From: a virus
Virus record (IMG/VR): IMGVR_UViG_3300017989_000078
DNA length: 64,000 nucleotides
Strand: one strand, 5' to 3'
Shown here: one piece after another, positions 7,068-53,655 of the stretch
Position numbering within the stretch: position 1 is the stretch's first letter
How the letters are laid out: every line of letters starts with the position of its first letter
Notes under the pieces: model-generated
Seen by the model: the letters and a program-made list of their open reading frames with translations, nothing else
Told to the model about the DNA's origin: nothing
The model's database searches: none
Position numbers and translations under genes: made by a program

Positions 7068-7574
7068 ATGGGAACCAAGGATGACATCATAGCTGCGATC
7101 CAGGTGGTCGCGGATGCAACCCTTGATGGGAACATGAGGATTTCGCTAGGAGCCCCTGGCGACAACGTAGAGAATAGCATCTGTGCATGGCAGCCAACTG
7201 GCGCTGCATGGGTGCCTGAGCCGAAGACATGGCCGGTGGTGGTCCAGGGATTTGCTAGTTGGATGGATAGCCATGGAGTTGGCAGGGCGGACGTGTTCAC
7301 AGCTGTCAATGTGTTCACAGTGAGCGGCAATATTACGATCAATCACTGGGTGGTGGAGATGAATGCGGCCGGTATAACGCTGACACTACCAGCGGCGAGT
7401 GCTGTACCGCGTGGCAAGCAAGTAATTGTCAAGGATGTTTTTGGTTCTCCTGCAAATGGTGTTGGTCCGACAGGTGTAGATACGATAGACGGAGCACCTG
7501 GTCCGATTCTGACAGGACCGAATGGCGCGATCAGGCTATATAGCGACGGTGTATCGGATTGGAGGACATGGTGA
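7068..7574 (+). CDS. hypothetical protein
   Basis: 168-aa ORF in the + strand gene array. Confidence 0.55.
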   Translation: MGTKDDIIAAIQVVADATLDGNMRISLGAPGDNVENSICAWQPTGAAWVPEPKTWPVVVQGFASWMDSHGVGRADVFTAVNVFTVSGNITINHWVVEMNAAGITLTLPAASAVPRGKQVIVKDVFGSPANGVGPTGVDTIDGAPGPILTGPNGAIRLYSDGVSDWRTW

Positions 7575-8206: not shown

Positions 8207-9041
8207 GACGATCAACTTTATCACTGGTTGCCGTGGTAAATGTTCCTACTGCTACGCGAGAGGAACTGCTCAACGAAATGCACGCATGGGCTCGGCCAGG
8301 TACGTGGCAGTGGAGCAACTGACAGGAGATCCGTTCCACCCGACGTATCACCACAATGTGATGGAGCATGAACTGAAACGCTTGTCACGTGCGACGAAGC
8401 CGCGTGTTGTGTTCATAGGCTCCATGTCAGATCCGGCAACTACTGGGCCGTGGATGTATCTAGATGGTACTGGACGCGGGGGCAGGCATCAGGAGGTTTC
8501 TGACACGTGGGTACAGGAGATGATTATCGCGTTTGCTAAAGAGTTGCCACAACACACATTCATCCTGTTGACCAAACGTCCAGATAACCTGAAGATGGGG
8601 CCGTGGCCGAGTAACGTATGGATAGGAGTGTCTGCTGCGGACGAGGTGTCAGCAAATAGCAATATACCATATCTGATGAGCCAGACGCAGTGGAATGGTC
8701 GCGTGGACTGCATGGGACCAATGAGGCCTACGCTACAATGTGGTGGATTGTTTACAAGCATAGAACCATTGCAGGGTGGTCCAGATCCGATGGACTTTGT
8801 TGATCCAGCGATATTCGATGATGTGATAACCAAACCAGGATGGATAGTGATCGGTTCGCAGAAACGTCCAAAGCTGGCACATGGACAAGGCAGGTTTGTT
8901 GTAAAGAACGCATTGGAGATCGTAGAATGGGCGCGTGTCAATGACGTTCCGTGTTTTATAAAAGATAACCTGATTCGGCTCGCACCGGATTACAGCTGGC
9001 CGCGGCAATTCCCCGCGGCGTTTGGAAAGGCAGACAAATGA
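8175..9041 (+). CDS. phage Gp37/Gp68 (DUF5131)-like protein
   Basis: N-terminus MGKTKIEWCDETINFITGCRGKCSYCYA is typical of that family. GGAGGGGG RBS. Confidence 0.65.
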   Translation: MGKTKIEWCDETINFITGCRGKCSYCYARGTAQRNARMGSARYVAVEQLTGDPFHPTYHHNVMEHELKRLSRATKPRVVFIGSMSDPATTGPWMYLDGTGRGGRHQEVSDTWVQEMIIAFAKELPQHTFILLTKRPDNLKMGPWPSNVWIGVSAADEVSANSNIPYLMSQTQWNGRVDCMGPMRPTLQCGGLFTSIEPLQGGPDPMDFVDPAIFDDVITKPGWIVIGSQKRPKLAHGQGRFVVKNALEIVEWARVNDVPCFIKDNLIRLAPDYSWPRQFPAAFGKADK

Positions 9042-9379
9042 CAAGCAAGGAACGAAAAGAACTGGGCAACAATTACGAGAAGCGATGGTATCACAGCAAG
9101 AAATTCCTGGCCTTCTTGCTGATGGAGTTGTTGCTTGCGGCGATGTCAATGGTGGCGCTGTTCACGCAGCAGCCAGCAGGCTGGCCTTTAGCTGCGTTCA
9201 TGACTGGCATAGTTGTCACGATGGGCAGCATAGCACTAACATTCAATGGATATCAGGCAAAGCTGGACATGTATGTGCGCGGCATGGCGCTCACCGGTGA
9301 TCCACCAAAGAGTTTGATGGACAAGCTGCTTGGTAGAAAGGAACCGCAGGATCCTGACGACGAAGACGGTGAAATATGA
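9038..9379 (+). CDS. small two-TM membrane protein (holin-like)
   Basis: Two hydrophobic helices (FLAFLLMELLLAAMSMVALF and LAAFMTGIVVTMGSIALTF) followed by a charged C-terminus. ATGA overlap. Confidence 0.5.
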   Translation: MTSKERKELGNNYEKRWYHSKKFLAFLLMELLLAAMSMVALFTQQPAGWPLAAFMTGIVVTMGSIALTFNGYQAKLDMYVRGMALTGDPPKSLMDKLLGRKEPQDPDDEDGEI

Positions 9380-9765
9380 TGTTACCGATTCCGACATGGA
9401 GACTATTGAAAGATCTGTGGCCAGTGTTGGTTTTGCTGATCGCTGGTGGTGCGATCATGGTAGCCGGCGCATTGTTTGCAGTCCGAGGGTGCAGCACAGA
9501 ACCACCTGAAGATGGGTTGCTTGTCGCCAGGGATCAGATCTTGGATCAGGTTCGTCGCGAACGGGAAGAGAACGCTAAGAAGTTGGAAGTACTGGGGCAG
9601 CAACTTGACTCGCTACGATTCCAGGTGGATCAACTCGATCTGGAAATTGCAAACTCCGCCAGGGAGAGAGAGGAAATACACGATGCGATTGACAATGCTA
9701 CATCTATTGGTGACGTTGACAGTGCTCTTAAGCGCGGCGGCCGCGTTGGCAGACGAGGACGTTGA
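9376..9765 (+). CDS. membrane-anchored coiled-coil protein
   Basis: N-terminal TM segment LWPVLVLLIAGGAIMVAGALFAV, then a heptad-like charged region. ATGA overlap. Confidence 0.5.
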   Translation: MMLPIPTWRLLKDLWPVLVLLIAGGAIMVAGALFAVRGCSTEPPEDGLLVARDQILDQVRREREENAKKLEVLGQQLDSLRFQVDQLDLEIANSAREREEIHDAIDNATSIGDVDSALKRGGRVGRRGR

Positions 9766-42851: not shown

Positions 42852-43169
42852 ATGGCATTTCCAGAAATCAGACTTTATGAATTTGATGAGAACCCGGCCG
42901 GCACTTTGCCACTTGGCGATGGTCACGTACACGACGTGAGGCAGATGTCGGACAAGGGTTATGAGTTCAAGACGGCCCTTGGTTGCGCTGCGGTCTTTAC
43001 TCTCGAGGGATCCGTAGCCGGCAGCGTATGGACGACGATACAGGCCGGGATAGGTGCGGCTGATGCTCAGGGTTCTATTGGAGACGAATACAACTACGTG
43101 CGAGTCAATGGGACGACTGCGGGTGTGTTGTTAGGCGCTGAACTGAAGATAGCAGGGAAGGTACTGTAA
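42852..43169 (+). CDS. hypothetical protein
   Basis: AAGGAGG RBS. Confidence 0.5.
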   Translation: MAFPEIRLYEFDENPAGTLPLGDGHVHDVRQMSDKGYEFKTALGCAAVFTLEGSVAGSVWTTIQAGIGAADAQGSIGDEYNYVRVNGTTAGVLLGAELKIAGKVL

Positions 43170-45085
43170 TGGCCCCCCGGGTAAGGAAGAGCGGCAAAGC
43201 CGGGGCTACAAGAAAAAGTAACGACCCAGCGTTCCACGTGGACGTTCGCGAGATACTGGCCAAGGCATCTGTGATGACCGGTCGTGAGGTTAACGAGTCC
43301 TCTGCCATTGCTGCTCTTGACACACGGCGTGACATGTACGGCGATTCAGGCGCCGTTGAGCCGCCATATGATCCGGAGTCACTGCTGAACTACATCGAAT
43401 TGACACCACACCTCGCGCCCAATATCGCCAGCTACCAGACGAACATCGAGGGGTATGGCTACCAAGCTGTAGTGAAAGTGCCTTGGATGGAAGATCTGGA
43501 CAGCGAAGAAGCGACGGAGGCTATCCGTAACGCACTCCAGATCGAGAGGTATGTGGACCAGGAGGAGGCGATTTTAGCAGCGGCTGAAAAGGCAGAAGAC
43601 GATGCGCCAGTGGATGTGGACGACGGCGGCGAAGTGACCGACGAAGAAGTGGATGAGGTGCGCAAGAAGTTGGCAATTGGCCTACGCAGGGAAGAGTACT
43701 TCTTCAATGCATTCTTCGATACCTGTTGCAGCACGATGTCGTTCATCAAGCTTCGCCGAATCACTAGATTTGACATCGAGGGCAATGGGTGGGGCGCGTG
43801 GGAAATGCTCGAGGATGGTTATGGTAGACTCAAGCGGCTCAACTACATCCCAGGATACACAGTGCGCCCAATGCGTGACGAGGGAGAACTAGTCGAGACA
43901 ACGGAAGACGACCCGATTACACCATTGTCAGAGGGACGTGAGATCCCTGTGCATCGCCGGTTCCGTCGGTATGTCCAGATAGTTGGAGATCGGAAGTCTT
44001 ATTACAAATCCCCCAATGATCCCAGAGTGATAAGTGCCACTACGGGCAAGATCTACAAGTCAGTGGAGGAAATGCGCAAGCCCAAAGACGATGGCGGCGA
44101 AGGAAAGAATGCCAGAGAAGCCAACGAGTTGATCTACATACCGCTCCATGACCCGCGTACGCCGTGCCCTCCACCTCGCTGGATAGGCAACCTGCTGGCA
44201 GTACTTGGTGTACGAGAGGCAGACGAGACCAACTACTTCTATCTGGACAGTAGTGCGATACCACCAGGCATCTTGTTTGTTGGAGGCGGCAAGGTACCAC
44301 GGGATATGAAGGACCGACTCGAGCAGCGGATGACACAGGAGTTTGGTGGTAGCGAGAACCGTCACAAGATCTTAGTTGTGGAGGCGCATCCGATGAAGCA
44401 AAAGGGTGAGGAGCGGACCCTGATGCCGACAATGGAGTTTGAGTCACTTCGTGGAGCACAGCAGTCTGACGCCACATTCACGAACTACGACGAACGCAGT
44501 GCCGACAGGATAGGTGCTTCGTTTCGGTTGCCTCCGATGCTGCGTGGTTACACACCAAAGAATCTGAATCGTGCAACTGCCATCGCGGCACTTTCGTTTG
44601 CTGAGGAACAGGTTTTCGAGCCAGAGCGCGAGGACATCGACTGGATCATCAACAAGTACATATTGCCACGGATCGGTGTGACTCTTCATACCTTCAGGTC
44701 AAACTCTCCACCGACCCGTAGTCCGGAGGAAATTGCCGAGCTGATCAAGGTTGCAGCGCCTAATGGTGGATTGCTTCCATATGAGATTCGTTCGTTATTG
44801 GGCGATGCCCTGAACCGTGGCCTAGCGAAAGTCGAAGAGGAGTGGGCTCGGTGGCCAATGCCGATGACACTTGCAGGGATTAGCGATGGCGGACAGGTCA
44901 CACCAGAAGAGGGTGATGAAGAAGCCGTTCTTTCAATGGGCCAAGTGACAAACCAGCTAGATCAGCTCACAAAGCGTGTCGAAGCGATCTTGACCGATGA
45001 GTTGCGCCAGGCCGGGTTTGATTTGGATCTTGAGGTTTCAGCGCGTAATATAGACGAGCTGCCCGTGGAAGGCGACGATGAATAG
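43169..45085 (+). CDS. portal protein (PBSX-type pattern)
   Basis: 638 aa downstream of terL. VEPPYDPESLLNYIELTPHLAPNIASYQTNIEGYGY and FDIEGNGWGAWEMLEDGYGRLKRLNYIPGYTVRPMR fit portal family patterns as I recall them. Confidence 0.75.
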   Translation: MAPRVRKSGKAGATRKSNDPAFHVDVREILAKASVMTGREVNESSAIAALDTRRDMYGDSGAVEPPYDPESLLNYIELTPHLAPNIASYQTNIEGYGYQAVVKVPWMEDLDSEEATEAIRNALQIERYVDQEEAILAAAEKAEDDAPVDVDDGGEVTDEEVDEVRKKLAIGLRREEYFFNAFFDTCCSTMSFIKLRRITRFDIEGNGWGAWEMLEDGYGRLKRLNYIPGYTVRPMRDEGELVETTEDDPITPLSEGREIPVHRRFRRYVQIVGDRKSYYKSPNDPRVISATTGKIYKSVEEMRKPKDDGGEGKNAREANELIYIPLHDPRTPCPPPRWIGNLLAVLGVREADETNYFYLDSSAIPPGILFVGGGKVPRDMKDRLEQRMTQEFGGSENRHKILVVEAHPMKQKGEERTLMPTMEFESLRGAQQSDATFTNYDERSADRIGASFRLPPMLRGYTPKNLNRATAIAALSFAEEQVFEPEREDIDWIINKYILPRIGVTLHTFRSNSPPTRSPEEIAELIKVAAPNGGLLPYEIRSLLGDALNRGLAKVEEEWARWPMPMTLAGISDGGQVTPEEGDEEAVLSMGQVTNQLDQLTKRVEAILTDELRQAGFDLDLEVSARNIDELPVEGDDE

Positions 45086-45317: not shown

Positions 45318-45889
45318 TTTCGAAACTCACAAGTGACAACATCCAGGGAATGCTTAACGCACTTGATCATCCCGTGGCAGCGAAGATCAATGAGATCATC
45401 GACATGGTGAACGCAGGTGGCATTCTTCAGGACCTCCAGAGCGTTCTCGACACCGGAAGCGTGGCTGCTATCACCACGCCGTTCGACATCGGCTTCGGGA
45501 TGCTCGACGTCTTCGACCTCGTTGCAGGTCACGGCACGGTCCACGGAGCCTTTGACATATCCAGTACTAACACCTATGGACCGGCGTACCCACCAAGGGA
45601 CCCAACTGCTGCCCTTGGACCGTCGTCGTTCGCGGCTGGATTTCTTAACGAGGTCACTGGGTACGCCGCAGCTGCCTTTGCGGGAACCAGCAAGCCACAG
45701 GCTCATATGCCTTCGCTCAGGGCGAGAACTGTGAGGCATCTGGGTATGCTAGCCGCGCTGTCGGAGATCAGTGCAAGGCGGCTCACTCTTACACCGAGGC
45801 CAGGGGCTTCAACTGCGAGGCATCGTACTATTCGGCGCTGGCGATGGGGGGGTTCTGTCGAGCTACTGCGGCGTCGGCAACAGCGATAG
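45314..45889 (+). CDS. tail-fibre-like protein, 5' portion (sensible translation only up to about 45683)
   Basis: GTGA overlap. The sequence ...SSFAAGFLNEVTGYAAAAFAG then degenerates into an Arg-rich tail. Confidence 0.5.
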   Translation: MISKLTSDNIQGMLNALDHPVAAKINEIIDMVNAGGILQDLQSVLDTGSVAAITTPFDIGFGMLDVFDLVAGHGTVHGAFDISSTNTYGPAYPPRDPTAALGPSSFAAGFLNEVTGYAAAAFAGTSKPQAHMPSLRARTVRHLGMLAALSEISARRLTLTPRPGASTARHRTIRRWRWGGSVELLRRRQQR

Positions 45890-46431
45890 GAAATGGCTAC
45901 TGGAATGGTGGTTCTATCTACAGGTGGCTCCAGGCTCACGGTCAAGGCGCGTTCAATTTGTCATCGGTCAATGGGTCATACGGTGCTGCACAGACCGGAG
46001 CCTCTGGTGCAAGGTCTTTCATCTTGGGGGGAGTCAACCACGAGACCGAGGCCGGATCTGCCGATGCGATGATTCTTGGCGGAGGGAACGTCAAGATGGA
46101 GACCAGCGCCTTACGGTCTGTCGCCATCGGCCTTATGAATGCCGTCATAGCTGACCCAGACAAGGTATACCTCCGGAACTTGAACCTATGGGATGCGGTG
46201 CCACGGGATGACTCCCTCACTGAGTTGTTGGCCTACAAGCCTGCCGACAAGTCAGTTCAGTACGTGGACAAGACTTCTGTCTCAATGCACCTGGGCTACG
46301 GAGCAACAGGAGCGAGGCCGGCAGGCCTAGTCGGGACTGATACTGGCAAGCAATATTTCGACACCACCGTTGGAGCGCCGATTTGGTGGAACGGATCCGG
46401 GTGGGTTGACGCTAGCGGCTCGCCCATCTAG
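45649..46431 (+). CDS. tail-fibre-like protein, 3' portion in the -1 frame (no start codon until 45844)
   Basis: Frame open from 45649. NQQATGSYAFAQGENCEASGYASRAVGDQCKAAHSYTEARGFNCEASYYSALAMGG continues the same G-x-x-A-x-A-x-G style repeats. The C-terminus QYFDTTVGAPIWWNGSGWVDASG is typical of fibre tips. Confidence 0.55.
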   Translation, partial: RGHWVRRSCLCGNQQATGSYAFAQGENCEASGYASRAVGDQCKAAHSYTEARGFNCEASYYSALAMGGFCRATAASATAIGNGYWNGGSIYRWLQAHGQGAFNLSSVNGSYGAAQTGASGARSFILGGVNHETEAGSADAMILGGGNVKMETSALRSVAIGLMNAVIADPDKVYLRNLNLWDAVPRDDSLTELLAYKPADKSVQYVDKTSVSMHLGYGATGARPAGLVGTDTGKQYFDTTVGAPIWWNGSGWVDASGSPI

Positions 46432-46442
46432 AGGAGGAAGAC

Positions 46443-46514
46443 ATGAACAAGATAGACGACAAACCGAAACCGGGGCAGCCCGACCCTAAGAAGTGGCCAC
46501 CCGAGTGCGACTAG
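46443..46514 (+). CDS. 23-codon micro-ORF (MNKIDDKPKPGQPDPKKWPPECD)
   Basis: Strong GAGGAGGAAG RBS 5 nt upstream. Not in the ORF track because of its size. Confidence 0.3.
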   Translation: MNKIDDKPKPGQPDPKKWPPECD

Positions 46515-46539
46515 TAGTGTGATGACAAGTAACTATAAT

Positions 46540-46659
46540 GTGTCGTTGGCGGAATGTTATACGCAGCCCTCAGGTAAGGGGCTCGTTGAAAATGGTGGAA
46601 CATCTGTTGTTGAACAGTATTAAACCTCAACGATGCAGGTGCGAATCCTGCACGGCACA
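46540..46659 (+). ncRNA. tRNA-like cloverleaf element with an oversized extra arm (non-canonical)
   Basis: 7-bp acceptor stem 46540-46546/46652-46658. D stem 46549-46551/46562-46564. Anticodon stem 46566-46570/46578-46582 with 7-nt loop CAGGTAA. T arm GCAGG-TGCGAAT-CCTGC at 46635-46651. A 52-nt insert (46583-46634) has its own 7-bp stem. Confidence 0.45.
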
Positions 46660-46728
46660 CTACGCAGACATTATAACCATCCACGAAAGGAGGACAGCAT
46701 GTTGAAATAGAAAAAGGAGAAGTGCAGA

Positions 46729-46956
46729 ATGTCGCACCACAAAAGACGTAAACCTAGGAATCAACGCGCCGGATGTAAGCAGTGCAAGCCATGGAAAATA
46801 AACGGGGTTGGTAAAGACAAACCAATTTCGGAAGCATGGTCTGATTACAAGCGCAGACAATTTAAAATGCGAGACATGAAAGAAGACATCGCAGGACAAG
46901 ATTCAATCATCGTAGCCAATTGCCGGGAGGAGAAGCAAAATGGGAACCTTCCCTGA
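46729..46956 (+). CDS. small basic hypothetical protein
   Basis: AAAAGGAGAAG RBS. Confidence 0.5.
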   Translation: MSHHKRRKPRNQRAGCKQCKPWKINGVGKDKPISEAWSDYKRRQFKMRDMKEDIAGQDSIIVANCREEKQNGNLP

Positions 46957-47434
46957 TCGACTGGATCCAATTACTGTTCCGCTGCCGATTATGATACCGG
47001 GCAGTGAAGGTGCGCCAGACATAACAGAACTGACATTCACCGTCACAAAGGTGCTCGAGCGTGAATACGGGGACGGCGTTTACATCATGGCCTCGGCCCG
47101 ATATGAAATGGTGACAGATCTAGAGACGCAAGAATTTGGTTTTGTAACAAATCGGAACACGGGCAAGATCCAGGAGGCTTCGGAGGCCATCTTCTTTTCT
47201 GCCGCTAAGTATGCAGCGTTTGTGCTGGCATATACAAAGCAGACACCACCATTACCGTTGCCAGACAACCCAGGACTGTTCTCGCCATGGTCCAGCGCAG
47301 TCATTGACACAGTGGATGGGACATCACCATTCCGTGGTTTCTGTGCCGGCATCCACTCATTGGCGTCGGATGCAGTAGAAACTGCGGAGATCTTATTCCG
47401 TTCAATGTGGCACGAAGAACCGCATGGAGATTAA
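46940..47434 (+). CDS. hypothetical protein
   Basis: GGGAGGAG RBS. Confidence 0.55.
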   Translation: MGTFPDRLDPITVPLPIMIPGSEGAPDITELTFTVTKVLEREYGDGVYIMASARYEMVTDLETQEFGFVTNRNTGKIQEASEAIFFSAAKYAAFVLAYTKQTPPLPLPDNPGLFSPWSSAVIDTVDGTSPFRGFCAGIHSLASDAVETAEILFRSMWHEEPHGD

Positions 47435-47817
47435 TGATGGCGCAAAAAGAATGGTACAATGGTCCGTACAAAGTTGTAGATGGAATAGACACATTGGGGC
47501 GCCGTCCGAGCCCCGGACTAGGTGATATTATCGCACATCGCAGTGGTGCCTTGGTATTGCGGTGTCCCAAATGCCATGCGATGCAGTTCACCCGGGCCGT
47601 TGTCTACAATAGCAAGGAGAACCCAACACTGGACCGTCCGATACATTGCGGCAGCGGTCATTGCAAGAAGTGCGGGATATGGTTCAGTATTACCGGCGGA
47701 ACATCAGAGCAGGTAGATGAACCTGTGAAAGCAACGAGGCCAATTCCACGCAAGCTCGCCAAGGCCGGCGTGCATCCATCTCCAAAGATCAAGATCAAAC
47801 AACCACAGGATTCATAA
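47434..47817 (+). CDS. hypothetical zinc-ribbon protein
   Basis: TAATG-type overlap; CPKCH...CGSGHCKKCG. Confidence 0.55.
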   Translation: MMAQKEWYNGPYKVVDGIDTLGRRPSPGLGDIIAHRSGALVLRCPKCHAMQFTRAVVYNSKENPTLDRPIHCGSGHCKKCGIWFSITGGTSEQVDEPVKATRPIPRKLAKAGVHPSPKIKIKQPQDS

Positions 47818-50800
47818 TGCTTGGCGTGTATTCCAATCCAGCACGTGGCTTCATGACTTTATATCCGGTAGCTGATCTTGGTGATGACGCTGTCGTTGCG
47901 TTGTGGAAAGTTGGTGTGCGCGCCAAGAGTCAGATTTGCAAAGCAGAAGGTTTTGCTCTTCTGGTCATGTCCTGCGATAGGGTGCTTCCCATACGAATCA
48001 ACTCCAAGACAGTCCAGCAGGCACGCCAGGAAGCGATCAAGTGTGTTCGCTCAGGGGAGGTCACCCTGCTCAAGTCCAGATACAGGGGACGGCACACGGT
48101 GTTTGAGAGGGTAGAGACGATCAGCGTGATGAGACCGGGAGTTGCTGAGTTGGACAAAGCCGCCAGTCTCGTTGCTCCGAGCGGTGTATTGCTGGAGAAG
48201 GCGCTATCTCCGCAGGATCCAACCGATGCTCGTATGATCGCTAAACGTCTCGGAAGTCAGTTGCGGTTTGCAGAACAAAAGGTATTGGGAAACAAACTGG
48301 AGAAGTACGTTAAGCGCCTGAATGTAGACTGGCCAAACCTATCTCACAAGGAAACATCGAGACATCTGGCGAGTATTCGTGGAGAACTCCGAAAGATGCT
48401 TGGTACGGCGGCCGTTGAGGTAATGCCCACATGGAGTGGCAAGATAGAAACCAGATTGAAAGGTGTCTTTGCGAATGCACGAAAGGTGGTCCAGAGCAAC
48501 TTCCTTCCTAGTGTGGGTGTGTCACTACGCCAGCCAGATGTTGTGGCAATCGGAGCAATTGCAGATCAGAGCGGTTGGTGGATGCGCGATGCCGCAGGCG
48601 TCCGGTCGGACAGACTAACTGCACGTGCACGCAAAGTGGTGGCACAGGGGCTGCGCGATGGACTAGGCCGTCATGACATTGGGGAGATGCTGCAGAAGAC
48701 CTTGCCCAAAGCGTGGCAGGCCATGGGGTCCAACTACTTCACTGTTGTTGCAGCAGCTGCGGTAAACAGAGCACGCTCATATTCGGAAGTCAGTGGTTAC
48801 ATCGAAGTTGGTATCGAGGCGCTGGAGGTGCAGGCAGTACTCGATGAGCGCACGACGGAAATATGCCGATGTCTGGACGGACAGGTCATCGATACGCATG
48901 TGGTCAGTCAGCAAATTGTAGGCGCCATGAACGTGGCACGTCCGGAGGACATCCGTGATGCCTCTCCATTCCTGAAGGAGATTACCAACCAAAAGACTGG
49001 TGTGCGCAGCATTGTCACCGCGAATAACGGGACCAAAATTGCGGATGTAGTTCGCAGCGGTGTTGGGCGCGTCGATGATCGTGGAATATTCAAATACTTC
49101 AAGGCCGGCAACCAGCTCGCCGATGCCAACATAGGACCGCCTCCTTATCACCACATTTGCAGATCATGGACGATACCTGTCACTACGACAGTGTCCGTTC
49201 CGAGAAATAAAATGGCTCGGGCAGGCGGCGGCGCACCTACTGCACCTAAGATAGTTCCAAAGGGTGGGAAGCCACGTCCAGGGGTTGGACCACGGCCGCA
49301 GATTATGCATCCCAAGCCGACTACCAGGGAGCAACCGCTTGTCGGTGATCCAGACCTGATCGAACGCTATCCGTTTACACAGGATTTTGTTACGCCAGGC
49401 AATCTTCCAGCTCGTTGGTACAAGGATGCTGCTACGGGAGAACTCAAGCATGCAGCGGTATACCAGCGGTATCAGTACGACCCACAGAGCCGCGTCATTC
49501 GCGGGCTCGGTAGACCGTCGCAGGTAGCCAAACCCAAAGATCCGCTTAAGGACGTGTTGTCCGATCTGTCCAGGAAACTGAAACTATCTGCAGATACAAA
49601 CGGCGTAGTAATGAATGTCGAGAAGCTGGGCACTAGAACTACGAAGGACTTTGTGCTCGCCGAAACTAAACAGCCAGCTGCCCATCGGGTCTACACGGTA
49701 CGGAGCACTACAACGGGTGAGCTAGAATATTTGAAATTCAACAGTGACCTGCGTCGCAAATCCAGAAATGCTCTGTCAGATCTACGCCATGCAGAATCGG
49801 CAGCTAAGATGGAACAGGCGTTGGCACGCATGGAGAAACAGGGATACCTGATCCGTACCAAGGACGCATCCACGGTTACTTTTGGGAAACCAGCACCGAA
49901 GATGGCTCCCAAGGCCAGCCCTGGTCCAAAGCGTCCCCCCGCTACTCCACCTAAAAAGACGCCAAAGAAAAAGCCAACAGACCCAACGATTGCACCGAAG
50001 CCAAAACCGAAGATTGTGGCACCCAATAAGAAGCCTCCAAAAAAGAAACCGCCACAACCCCCAGAGCCACAACAGCCCGCATCAGGTAAGGTAGATGACT
50101 ATAGTGAATATGGATTGATAGAAAACAAACCTGTCACGGAGCAGTTGCAAAAACGAATAGAGATGGAAGGGGCTCGTCTATCCGATTATTTGTCCAATGA
50201 AACGGCAAAGATGCAGTCAAGGTTTGGACGGAATCTTTTTGACCATGAACGGGCAGATAGAATCAGAGATTTTGTTGCGGCAGAGACAGGCAGTGTCAGT
50301 AAGTTTACAAGAAAAGTCATCACCGACAACACGGAGGCTCCTAATTCTTTTACAAAGGCAGTTTTGAAAAGGACCACCCAGCGCAAGGTGCGCCGTGGCT
50401 CGATGGGAGCGAACGTATTACCGTCGAAGGTAGGATTGAGGAAAGTCTCAATATCAGATACGGCCAAGTTGTATAACGATGCCTTTGAACATCTCAGTCA
50501 GCGTGTTATGGATGCAGCCTTGGACAAGGGACTTCCTCGAGTGTTTTACGCAACCAAAGTCCGAGGTGGCGCATATCACTCCCATAATTTTAACGCGATT
50601 GTTTTGCCAGGAGAAGCCAGTGCGGCGGAGATTAAACGAATATTCCGTCATGAGTTCGGTCATTATGTAGATACTTTGGGAAAAGGAAAGGAAGCGGCCA
50701 TTGAATTTCGAGAGATATACGCCACTCATGGTGGGCGGGTATTTACCAAGACGTATCCCAGTGGTTTCAGTTACAAATACAAACGAGGAAAGTGGGAAGA

Positions 50801-50966
50801 CGAGTATTGCGGCAGAGTGTATGAGCATGCCGCTGCGGAAACAAATTCAGTGATGTCAGAGTCGTTCGCAGAGAGCACAAAACTCAAGCTAAATAAGATG
50901 TACGAAGCCAATCCAGACCATGTTGGCTACTACATGGCACAGGCAAAGGGGAGTTTCATACCATGA
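47817..50966 (+). CDS. MuF/SPP1 gp7-like minor head protein with Pro/Lys-rich linker and C-terminal HExxH domain
   Basis: VQAVLDERTTEICRCLDGQVID matches the MuF D-x-R-T...C...DG signature. PKKTPKKKPTDPTIAPKPKPKIVAPNKKPPKKKPPQPPEPQQP is the linker. IFRHEFGHYVD is the HExxH motif. TAATG overlap. Confidence 0.75.
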   Translation: MLGVYSNPARGFMTLYPVADLGDDAVVALWKVGVRAKSQICKAEGFALLVMSCDRVLPIRINSKTVQQARQEAIKCVRSGEVTLLKSRYRGRHTVFERVETISVMRPGVAELDKAASLVAPSGVLLEKALSPQDPTDARMIAKRLGSQLRFAEQKVLGNKLEKYVKRLNVDWPNLSHKETSRHLASIRGELRKMLGTAAVEVMPTWSGKIETRLKGVFANARKVVQSNFLPSVGVSLRQPDVVAIGAIADQSGWWMRDAAGVRSDRLTARARKVVAQGLRDGLGRHDIGEMLQKTLPKAWQAMGSNYFTVVAAAAVNRARSYSEVSGYIEVGIEALEVQAVLDERTTEICRCLDGQVIDTHVVSQQIVGAMNVARPEDIRDASPFLKEITNQKTGVRSIVTANNGTKIADVVRSGVGRVDDRGIFKYFKAGNQLADANIGPPPYHHICRSWTIPVTTTVSVPRNKMARAGGGAPTAPKIVPKGGKPRPGVGPRPQIMHPKPTTREQPLVGDPDLIERYPFTQDFVTPGNLPARWYKDAATGELKHAAVYQRYQYDPQSRVIRGLGRPSQVAKPKDPLKDVLSDLSRKLKLSADTNGVVMNVEKLGTRTTKDFVLAETKQPAAHRVYTVRSTTTGELEYLKFNSDLRRKSRNALSDLRHAESAAKMEQALARMEKQGYLIRTKDASTVTFGKPAPKMAPKASPGPKRPPATPPKKTPKKKPTDPTIAPKPKPKIVAPNKKPPKKKPPQPPEPQQPASGKVDDYSEYGLIENKPVTEQLQKRIEMEGARLSDYLSNETAKMQSRFGRNLFDHERADRIRDFVAAETGSVSKFTRKVITDNTEAPNSFTKAVLKRTTQRKVRRGSMGANVLPSKVGLRKVSISDTAKLYNDAFEHLSQRVMDAALDKGLPRVFYATKVRGGAYHSHNFNAIVLPGEASAAEIKRIFRHEFGHYVDTLGKGKEAAIEFREIYATHGGRVFTKTYPSGFSYKYKRGKWEDEYCGRVYEHAAAETNSVMSESFAESTKLKLNKMYEANPDHVGYYMAQAKGSFIP

Positions 50967-52623: not shown

Positions 52624-53655
52624 TTGGAAATCGGAATCTTTACATCGAGCCAGAAGAACGACGATGGCGTGCCGATATCTTTTTTCGGCATGAACGACAC
52701 CCACATTTTGGCGGCACTGTATAAAGCTGCGACAGCGATTGCTGGTCCTGGCATGGACTCATTTGATCCGCCGGCAGGCATGAAGGTGCACAAGGTCGGT
52801 TCTGTTTCGGTGGAGGGAGTCGACGACGAGTCGGTGTATGTTATTCAGGCCGATGATGCTGCCAAGCCAGAGGGTGGTCGCATGCCAGGTGGTGCCAACG
52901 GGACATGGGCCATACAGTCGCTTATCTTTAGCAAAGATGAATTCACCGTTGAGACCGCGCGCAAATGGGTAACCGACCACGATGGCTTCGGTGACTATGG
53001 CGTGGACGAGACCGAGACTTCGTTTAGATTCCGTCAGTACGACCCTGAATATTTCGATGAGTTCCGCACGATAACAGTGGACACGGGCATATCGGCCTCC
53101 TATGGCAAGATTGACAAAGAGACGGATACCACGACAGAAGATGCAGCCAAATCTTTGGAGGCGTCTATCCGCAAGTGGGAAGCTGTTCACAACGTCAACA
53201 AGGCGATCATGGCCTCTGGGCTAAAGGTCCTTTCCGAGACGGCAGTTGTGACCAAAGGCGAGGATGGCGAATCCGAGGAACGCTTTGTCATGTCCCTAGT
53301 GTTGGAGCCGAACGACGGCCAAGACGGGGCTCCTCTTAAGCCTGATACACAGGGTGACATTTACAGCGCGGCAGATGTACGCAAAGCGGCTCATGCTTGG
53401 ATGGAGCACCACGGCGCGATAGATCTGCGCCATTCCTGGAAGGCACTTGGCAAGGACGAGGTCCGGCCACTCGAGACATACGTGGCTCCTGTAGATTTCA
53501 CATTGGGTGAAGGGGACAATGCGTACGACGTAATCAAAGGAACATGGCTGCTAGGTGTTCGTATCGTAGACGATAAATTATGGGACGAAGTCAAAGACGG
53601 CGAACTAGGGGCTTATAGCATCGGTGGCACCGCCATCCGTGAGCCAGCAGAGTAG
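52624..53655 (+). CDS. XkdF-like putative prohead serine protease
   Basis: ERFVMSLVLEPNDGQDG..KPDTQGDIYSAADVRKAAHAWMEHHGAIDLRHS...KGTWLLGVRIVDDKLWDEVKDGELGAYSIGG fits the XkdF (Peptidase_S78_2) pattern. TTG start behind GGAGGT. Confidence 0.65.
   Translation: MEIGIFTSSQKNDDGVPISFFGMNDTHILAALYKAATAIAGPGMDSFDPPAGMKVHKVGSVSVEGVDDESVYVIQADDAAKPEGGRMPGGANGTWAIQSLIFSKDEFTVETARKWVTDHDGFGDYGVDETETSFRFRQYDPEYFDEFRTITVDTGISASYGKIDKETDTTTEDAAKSLEASIRKWEAVHNVNKAIMASGLKVLSETAVVTKGEDGESEERFVMSLVLEPNDGQDGAPLKPDTQGDIYSAADVRKAAHAWMEHHGAIDLRHSWKALGKDEVRPLETYVAPVDFTLGEGDNAYDVIKGTWLLGVRIVDDKLWDEVKDGELGAYSIGGTAIREPAE

Follow-up and report, generated by a model that had tools for sequence, protein, structure and literature searches.

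A candidate oversized tRNA-Leu-derived RNA gene in the head-gene module of a phage recorded in IMG/VR

Phage annotation leaves an empty gap around positions 46540-46659 of the IMG/VR virus record IMGVR_UViG_3300017989_000078 and standard tRNA finders skip the element that lies there, which raises the question of what this element is and where it came from. The stretch of DNA analysed, 64,000 nucleotides (64 kb) in length, is referred to here as the window. A sequence-only reading of the window had drawn a tRNA-like cloverleaf with an unusually long extra arm at this place, and had proposed that it may be a degenerate phage tRNA, a tRNA mimic, a tRNA gene with an insertion at an unusual site or an attP-type tRNA fragment. 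The structural details drawn by that reading are all present in the sequence, and the unconstrained minimum free energy (MFE) fold of 46540-46659 (plus strand, 120 nt) is the cloverleaf itself at -43.2 kcal/mol, in which A at position 33, G at position 55 and an extra arm composed of 7 bp, 3 bp and a 5-bp hairpin are all seen. The parts of the element are as follows:

46540-46546, plus strand: 5′ strand of the acceptor stem, GTGTCGT, with 7 of 7 pairs to 46652-46658 in the MFE fold, one of them U-G; aligned to the acceptor of covariance model R2 (see below)
46547-46565, plus strand: T8, G9, a tRNA-Leu-type D arm (GCG GAATGTTATA CGC) and A26; nearest to tRNA-Leu among 580 phage tRNAs
46549-46551/46562-46564, plus strand: D stem of 3 bp, from the MFE fold
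46566-46570/46578-46582, plus strand: anticodon-like arm GCCCT/GGGGC of 5 bp, one of them U-G, from the MFE fold
46571-46577, plus strand: anticodon-like loop CAGGTAA of 7 nt with A at position 33, from the MFE fold
46583-46633, plus strand: extra (variable) arm of 51 nt, from the MFE fold
46583-46589/46627-46633 (7 bp), 46594-46596/46624-46626 (3 bp) and 46604-46617 (apical 5-bp hairpin), plus strand: stems of the extra arm, from the MFE fold
46635-46651, plus strand: T arm GCAGG-TGCGAAT-CCTGC with T54, G55, C56, A58 and G53-C61, from the MFE fold, the Rfam tRNA alignment and R2
46652-46659, plus strand: 3′ strand of the acceptor stem, ACGGCAC, and discriminator A73 (46659), followed by C-T-A, CCA not being encoded

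The cloverleaf is real. It comprises 35 base pairs, two of which are G-U, with no mismatch, and dinucleotide shuffles of the same 120 nt folded at -32.6 +/- 3.5 kcal/mol (z = -3.03), just 2 of 200 being as stable, so that the pairing passes the comparison with shuffles of the same composition which the earlier reading had proposed. The reverse strand is less stable, at -35.8 kcal/mol. The interior of the element folded alone was also more stable than its shuffles (z = -2.6), as was the extra arm alone (46583-46632, 50 nt folded; z = -2.5), a second copy of which was found neither in the window nor in approximately 2 Mb of fetched loci. The canonical features present include the 7-bp acceptor stem, the 5-bp T stem, T54, C56, A58 and the G53-C61 pair.

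The element is located in the head-gene module, where all surrounding genes are on the plus strand:

43169-45085, plus strand: portal
45844-46431, plus strand: 195-aa virion protein
46443-46514, plus strand: 23-aa ORF
46515-46939, plus strand: 425-bp block with the tRNA-like gene, a leader mini-ORF and most of the 75-aa ORF, missing in relatives L001/L002
46699-46710, plus strand: leader mini-ORF ATG TTG AAA TAG of 3 codons, with its own Shine-Dalgarno sequence (SD) at 46687-46694
46729-46956, plus strand: 75-aa basic CxxC ORF
46940-47434, plus strand: 164-aa ORF
47817-50966, plus strand: MuF-like head protein
52624-53655, plus strand: protease
further downstream of the protease, plus strand: sheath, tube and baseplate genes

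The gene upstream, which had been read as fibre-like, encodes a virion structural protein near the portal for which identity as a fibre is not demonstrable. In the nearest relatives, loci L001 and L002 (the 195-aa protein being 66% identical and the 164-aa protein 54%), the short ORF and the 164-aa homologue are directly joined, the stop of the 22-aa ORF in L002 (3673) abutting the ATG of the 164-aa homologue (3674), which identifies 46515-46939 as an extra block in the window phage. No close homologue of the 164-aa protein was found. The proline/lysine-rich ORF of 22-23 aa, which the JGI gene caller does not call, is itself conserved after the 195-aa gene (window 46443-46514, MNKIDDKPKPGQPDPKKWPPECD; L002 3605-3673, MRTDDKPKPRPVPKDWPPKDED). 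A scan for promoters and terminators found none adjacent to the element, which fits co-transcription with the neighbouring genes, and neither the window nor the 9 kb of contig beyond it (L351), together at least 72.8 kb of phage, contains another tRNA. The locus, and likewise the 12 kb around it, had no match in GenBank phage DNA; exact and gapped scans of IMG/VR for the T arm plus acceptor, and for the anticodon arm, returned 0 matches, and the interior of the element had no homologue in any collection searched. The only other copies of the locus, from two independent assemblies, are 100% identical to the window, and no orthologue of the element with sequence variation was found.

The other major constituent of the block links it to tRNA arrays. 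The 75-aa protein is basic, carries a CxxC motif, starts with MSHHKRRKPRNQRAGCKQCKPWKING (MSHHKRRKPRxQRAGCKMCKPWKING...) and is conserved over its first ~55 aa only; it belongs to no family in Pfam, NCBIfam or PHROGs, a PDB sequence search returned nothing, and its AlphaFold model is of low confidence (pLDDT 57) with no recognisable RNA-binding fold. Its closest homologues (64-69% identity) lie inside tRNA/tmRNA arrays of larger phages, in the order tmRNA, tRNA-Met(CAT), structured spacer of 150-340 nt, SD-mini-ORF, protein and tRNA-Ile, and 20 of 60 distinct loci of the protein family have a same-strand tRNA within 500 nt, the closest homologues following tRNA-Met(CAT). As the homologues sit in such arrays, the block looks like an array piece that was moved into a head-gene operon. 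None of 51 metagenome loci of the protein family has a homologue of the element upstream. The closest homologues are preceded by a conserved SD and M-x-x-stop mini-ORF, arranged as in the window.

A number of further observations were made on this protein family and its surroundings. Members with the motif HHKRRxPRxxRAGCKMCKPWK are encoded at 46729-46956 of the window, L008 2955-3204, L013 2960-3186 and L297 1460-1680, and in L302 and L303, and the leader mini-ORFs of the closest members, of 3-4 codons, read MLK*, MAR*, MAK*, MAS*, MAD*, MVR* and MAMK*. An SD followed by a mini-ORF of 3-4 codons calls to mind the 'bar' minigenes of lambda. Structured spacers of 120-340 nt separate tRNA-Met(CAT) from the protein leader in L008 (2654-2960, the same as in L016), L297 (1277-1470) and L017 (2342-2470); they have no Rfam family, and in L008 a terminator-like hairpin closes the spacer. 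The phage tmRNA is directly preceded, at L008 ~1916-2075, L302 ~470-600 and L017 1508-1618, by a circularly permuted tRNA-like element in which the T arm and acceptor 3′ strand come first, followed after a short loop by the acceptor 5′ strand and D arm, a topology which equals that of the YrlA/Y-RNA tRNA-like module, albeit with no Rfam match at gathering level.

The failure of standard tools to detect the element is due to its extra arm. ARAGORN found 0 genes in the 64-kb window and no Rfam match at gathering level was obtained, so that neither of these checks proposed by the earlier reading recovered the element; at E<=10 the Rfam tRNA model aligned with the T arm and acceptor only, at 13.9 bits as compared to a gathering score of 29. 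When the extra arm was shortened in silico, ARAGORN at default settings called a tRNA with anticodon GGT, and arm length alone thus conceals the gene. The longest of 580 ARAGORN-called tRNAs fall in the 95-99-nt length bin, as compared to 120 nt for the element.

The tRNA-Leu ancestry of the element is evident from several comparisons. A covariance model built from its single sequence (R1) scored best, in other phage contigs, on class II tRNAs, namely Leu and Tyr, at 40-48 bits. A second covariance model (R2), representing the acceptor/D/T 'shell' and built from 30 other sequences with the window left out, matched 46540-46659 end to end across the 74-nt insert (28.3 bits, E = 2.5e-7), the element being its sole match in the 64 kb; true tRNA-Leu scored 40-51 bits with R2. 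Positions 8 to 26 (TGGCGGAATGTTATACGCA) were compared with 580 unique ARAGORN-called phage tRNAs and Leu was nearest, with a maximum of 13 and a mean of 5.9, as against 2.9 for the mean of the next isotype; mis-called Leu shells made up the best matches outside Leu. Two G-to-T changes separate the D arm from GGCGGAATGGTAGACGC, and as genuine tRNA-Leu genes with ...GGTATACGC occur (L250), the D loop of the element is just one or two changes from a working D loop. The discriminator is A (A46659), as in tRNA-Leu, the long arm exits the cloverleaf at the class II position (positions 44-48), and the anticodon loop holds T-CAG-G, corresponding to U33-CAG-G37 of tRNA-Leu(CAG), one base off register with the 5-bp stem, so that the loop has either 7 nt with A33 or 9 nt, TCAGGTAAG, beginning with U. 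CUG is used more than any other Leu codon in the window (187 of 613), which is weak evidence. By its D arm, its discriminator, the site of its long arm and the R2 match, the element derives from a class II tRNA-Leu and is no generic tRNA mimic. The proposal of a degenerate phage tRNA or tRNA mimic is thereby upheld and narrowed to a tRNA-Leu (class II) derivative with its anticodon loop out of register; that of an insertion at an unusual site is better replaced by one of expansion of the usual class II variable arm, as the arm exits just where tRNA-Leu has its long arm.

The positions that form the tRNA elbow required separate consideration. Reviews describe pseudouridine 55 as the most universally conserved modification, and G55 of the element had been listed as a broken universal position which, together with A33 and a D loop devoid of GG, would abolish the elbow contacts. 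The T-arm core CAGGTGCGAATCCTG is present in more than 120 IMG/VR contigs, with 80 of the 120 matches listed lying in ARAGORN-called tRNAs. Among the 546 tRNAs whose T loop could be recognised, position 55 and the D loop were distributed as follows:

T55 with GG: 485
T55 without GG: 3
G55 without GG: 45
G55 with a GG somewhere: 11

Position 55 therefore covaries with the D loop (485 GG/T55, 45 AG-type/G55 and 14 mixed), G55 tRNAs having AG at the place of G18-G19, which makes G55 legitimate as long as A18 pairs with it. In loci chosen without regard to G55 there was T55 in 224 of 224 cases, GG in 232 of 234 and T33 in 216 of 234. Examples of A18-G55 tRNAs in loci L033-L152 are L081 (tRNA-Leu GAG), L034 (Gly), L036 (Tyr) and L038 (Ser), and L117 has a whole set of them. 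A18-G55 seems to have taken over from G18-pseudouridine 55 as the elbow pair of a whole lineage, a variant for which no description was found in the literature searched.

The element itself, with G-T at the 18-19 spot and G55 (D loop AATGTTATA, T loop TGCGAAT), conforms neither to GG/U55 nor to AG/G55, except when its D loop is shifted by one base, whereupon U-G would face G55-C56. What had been claimed of these positions is therefore in part correct. G55 is present in many ordinary-looking phage tRNAs with A18 and alone is no defect, but the D loop of the element fits neither convention, and the elbow is probably weakened. Similarly, GG is indeed absent from the D loop, but one G is retained, leaving it 1-2 changes from real tRNA-Leu D loops. 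Overall, the element departs from the norm at G19, in the register of U33 and at U55, all three near-universal, and its stems are undamaged. The U33 off register, the atypical D-loop/T-loop contacts and the 51-nt arm indicate that it should not serve as an ordinary elongator tRNA, and normal decoding is unlikely.

We consider the element to encode an oversized tRNA-shaped RNA that does not decode and descends from class II tRNA-Leu, which is carried in a small cassette and is probably still processable, and assign to this reading a probability of about one half. The element, the 75-aa CxxC gene and the leader mini-ORF would have entered the myovirus together as a block of ~425 bp, such as occurs within the tRNA/tmRNA arrays of larger phages. 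Transcription may then occur by read-through of the late structural operon, and the intact acceptor/T-arm minihelix with A73 would direct RNase P to cut at G46540, while the 3′ end would be trimmed after A46659 and CCA added. Such processing would release a stable RNA of ~120 nt and would free the downstream leader/small-protein mRNA. A weakened elbow could, on the other hand, impair recognition by RNase P, and any role of the RNA as a tRNA-Leu mimic or as a carrier of cargo is, like its transcription and processing, one that we infer.

The main rival to this reading is that the element represents a dead relic, i.e. a tRNA-Leu pseudogene which hitch-hikes with the small protein gene, is functionless and is no longer efficiently processed. 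The alteration of near-universal loop positions (G19, U33 register and U55) is as expected of a relic, and so is the occurrence of a lone copy, whose interior is without homologue anywhere searched, in a phage with no other tRNA in at least 72.8 kb. Against this, none of the 35 pairs, 15 of them in the extra arm, is broken, and the changes are confined to loops, whereas random decay should strike stems too, and the fold is significantly more stable than that of shuffled sequences. Perfect stems could also be the consequence of recent acquisition, not selection, and decay to a relic is accordingly a possibility to be taken seriously, albeit one which we doubt.

Tentatively, the non-decoding RNA proposed above may be placed in a broader context, as a search of IMG/VR for a Leu D arm separated by 70-100 nt from a T loop yielded at least 120 contigs. 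A perfect 7-bp acceptor stem could be formed from the flanks in 102 of the 121 matches listed, even though the acceptor was not part of that search. Pooled with the G55 variant, these amount to at least 110 unique elements of 100-180 nt, with 47 different acceptor stems and 94 unrelated interiors, in which a perfect acceptor, a TGGCGGAAT D arm and a GGTKCGAATCC T loop surround an interior of 50-130 nt; the element of the window agrees with the search pattern and has the perfect acceptor. Acceptor pairing was selected for in the shell alignment and is no proof by itself; pairing in the T stem, on which no selection was made, is 100%, with double changes at three positions. A73 followed by C is the rule in the class. 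The shells occur in tRNA arrays, with up to five per contig, as identical shells with different interiors, which are weakly structured (mean z = -0.7); an anticodon-like hairpin is present in 12 of 102 shells and U33 is not conserved. ARAGORN does not call these shells, and its -i mode applied to 63 of them gave essentially random results, with 33 different isotype/anticodon calls. They have no Rfam family, no full-length match was found in cultured phages in GenBank and no description in the literature searched, where reviews describe irregular tRNAs and allo-tRNAs but none of this size. The oversized Leu shells apparently constitute a large class of phage RNAs that has escaped description.

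Among loci L153-L296, shells are present in L257 (7183-7313, 8263-8371, 9025-9134, 11360-11501 and 12094-12207), L265 and L159, frequently with AGTCAGG/CCTGACT as the acceptor, and in L257 each is followed by a small ORF. The array of L283 harbours both a ROOL RNA (8833-9455, 229.8 bits) and an oversized G55-type Leu shell (7068-7201). Canonical T arms were also observed in further long tRNA-like RNAs, of 97-144 nt, at L049 4586-4729(-), L082 6304-6445(-), L119 1516-1623, L045 1562-1658, L046 4763-4882, L066 2731-2855(-), L121 7435-7549 and L303 488-609, the last just upstream of a tmRNA; some of these have an 8-bp acceptor (L049, L082 and L119) and anticodon-like loops without U33.

It may be that the element is a working member of this shell class, in which the tRNA-Leu acceptor/D/T frame would be kept and the anticodon and variable arms replaced by 50-130 nt of fast-changing cargo, the resulting RNAs being processed and perhaps leucylated without decoding. 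The frame that is retained would be that which RNase P and the CCA-adding enzyme, and possibly LeuRS and EF-Tu, recognise, and shell RNAs might act as decoys for tRNA-directed host factors, carry hairpins as cargo or punctuate mobile cassettes of small genes. We put this forward tentatively and at odds well short of even. The element shares with the class the acceptor/D/T frame, A73-C, an interior of 70 nt (the class mean being 70), its invisibility to ARAGORN and a small ORF downstream of it. It differs in that the class keeps GG (or AG with G55) and the element has neither; in being single and located in a head-gene module, whereas the class is multi-copy in tRNA arrays; in retaining an anticodon-like arm, of which the class is mostly devoid; and in its well-folded interior (z = -2.6 versus a class mean of -0.7).

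A different role would be that of a cis-acting leader for the mRNA of the mini-ORF and 75-aa protein, serving either to signal processing or stability or as the binding site for autoregulation by the CxxC protein. The position of the element is in keeping with this, as it ends 27 nt before the SD of the mini-ORF; relatives have tRNA-Met(CAT) at that place, with or without a structured spacer of 150-340 nt, and small ORFs come after each oversized shell in L257. The RNAs found at this position differ among homologues, however, such that no specific RNA-protein pairing is conserved, and the 75-aa protein, for which the AlphaFold model (pLDDT 57) reveals no recognisable RNA-binding fold, has no family. 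A leader function is for these reasons unlikely.

That the element is a functional decoding tRNA able to accommodate a giant variable arm, whether as Leu-CAG with its loop enlarged or as Thr-GGU, is very unlikely. It does have T-CAG-G in the anticodon loop, CUG as the top Leu codon of the window and a canonical acceptor, T arm and A73, and ARAGORN -i calls it tRNA-Leu(CAG). That call, however, needs a mismatched anticodon stem here and comes from a mode which produced random isotypes on 63 comparable shells, while U33 is not in register, the D loop conforms to neither elbow convention, the length of 120 nt exceeds the 95-99-nt top bin of the 580 ARAGORN-called tRNAs, and the Rfam tRNA model covers the T arm and acceptor only (13.9 bits versus 29).

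Least probable are an attP tRNA fragment (tRNA 3′ halves are common att sites, but the cloverleaf is full and not a 3′ half, no tRNA with the 3′ 21-mer of the element, GGTGCGAATCCTGCACGGCAC, was present in one genome each of 185,579 species, contrary to the att-site proposal, and the sole match was coding sequence in one actinobacterial MAG, by chance), an intron-containing tRNA (ARAGORN -i proposes a 29-nt intron, in the same model with the mismatched anticodon stem), a relative of tmRNA (position 3-70 is G-C, not G3-U70, with no ARAGORN or Rfam tmRNA call) or of Y RNA/YrlA (the ends are in the acceptor stem, the topology is not permuted and there is no Rfam match), and a small protein gene (a 55-aa ORF at 46538-46705 spans the element, but has no SD and no PHROG match and is not called by JGI). 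An antisense regulator was rejected also, one 11-mer match in the window being about the chance expectation.

Under the preferred reading of an oversized, non-decoding RNA derived from tRNA-Leu, this locus indicates that a tRNA-derived gene and a protein gene can move together, in a small cassette, into a structural operon. It is chiefly of value for pointing to the oversized Leu-shell class, of which more than 100 were found, and to the A18-G55 elbow lineage.

Of the known systems, class II tRNA-Leu is the closest to the element, with which it shares the 7-bp acceptor, T8, a 3-bp D stem with a GCGGAAT...ACGC D arm, A73, a long arm between the anticodon and T stems, a 5-bp T stem with T54/C56/A58, and T-CAG-G; the element differs in its variable region of 52 nt as compared to about 13-20 nt, in the replacement of G19 by U, in U33 being out of register, in G55 without a compensating A18 and in its total length of 120 nt. 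Allo-tRNAs and irregular metagenome tRNAs, some of which are translation-inactive and thought to travel with mobile elements, likewise have tRNA-Leu/Ser-like class II frames with non-standard arms, but the acceptor/T stems that define allo-tRNAs are 8/4 or 9/3 as compared to 7/5 in the element, and these papers describe no 50-nt arm (Mukai et al. 2017, PMC5389517; PMC7609411). T4 species 1 RNA (rnaC, 139 nt), by its annotation a small stable RNA of the T4 tRNA cluster, is similarly a phage RNA longer than a tRNA, with a canonical T arm by the terminal stem and long inner hairpins; it has no sequence similarity to the element and no tRNA-Leu D arm, and in contrast to the element it is located in a tRNA cluster. 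We know of no function assigned to T4 species 1 RNA. If the oversized shells are processed or charged, they would represent a new kind of phage tRNA mimic, and might illuminate stable RNAs of tRNA clusters such as T4 species 1 RNA.
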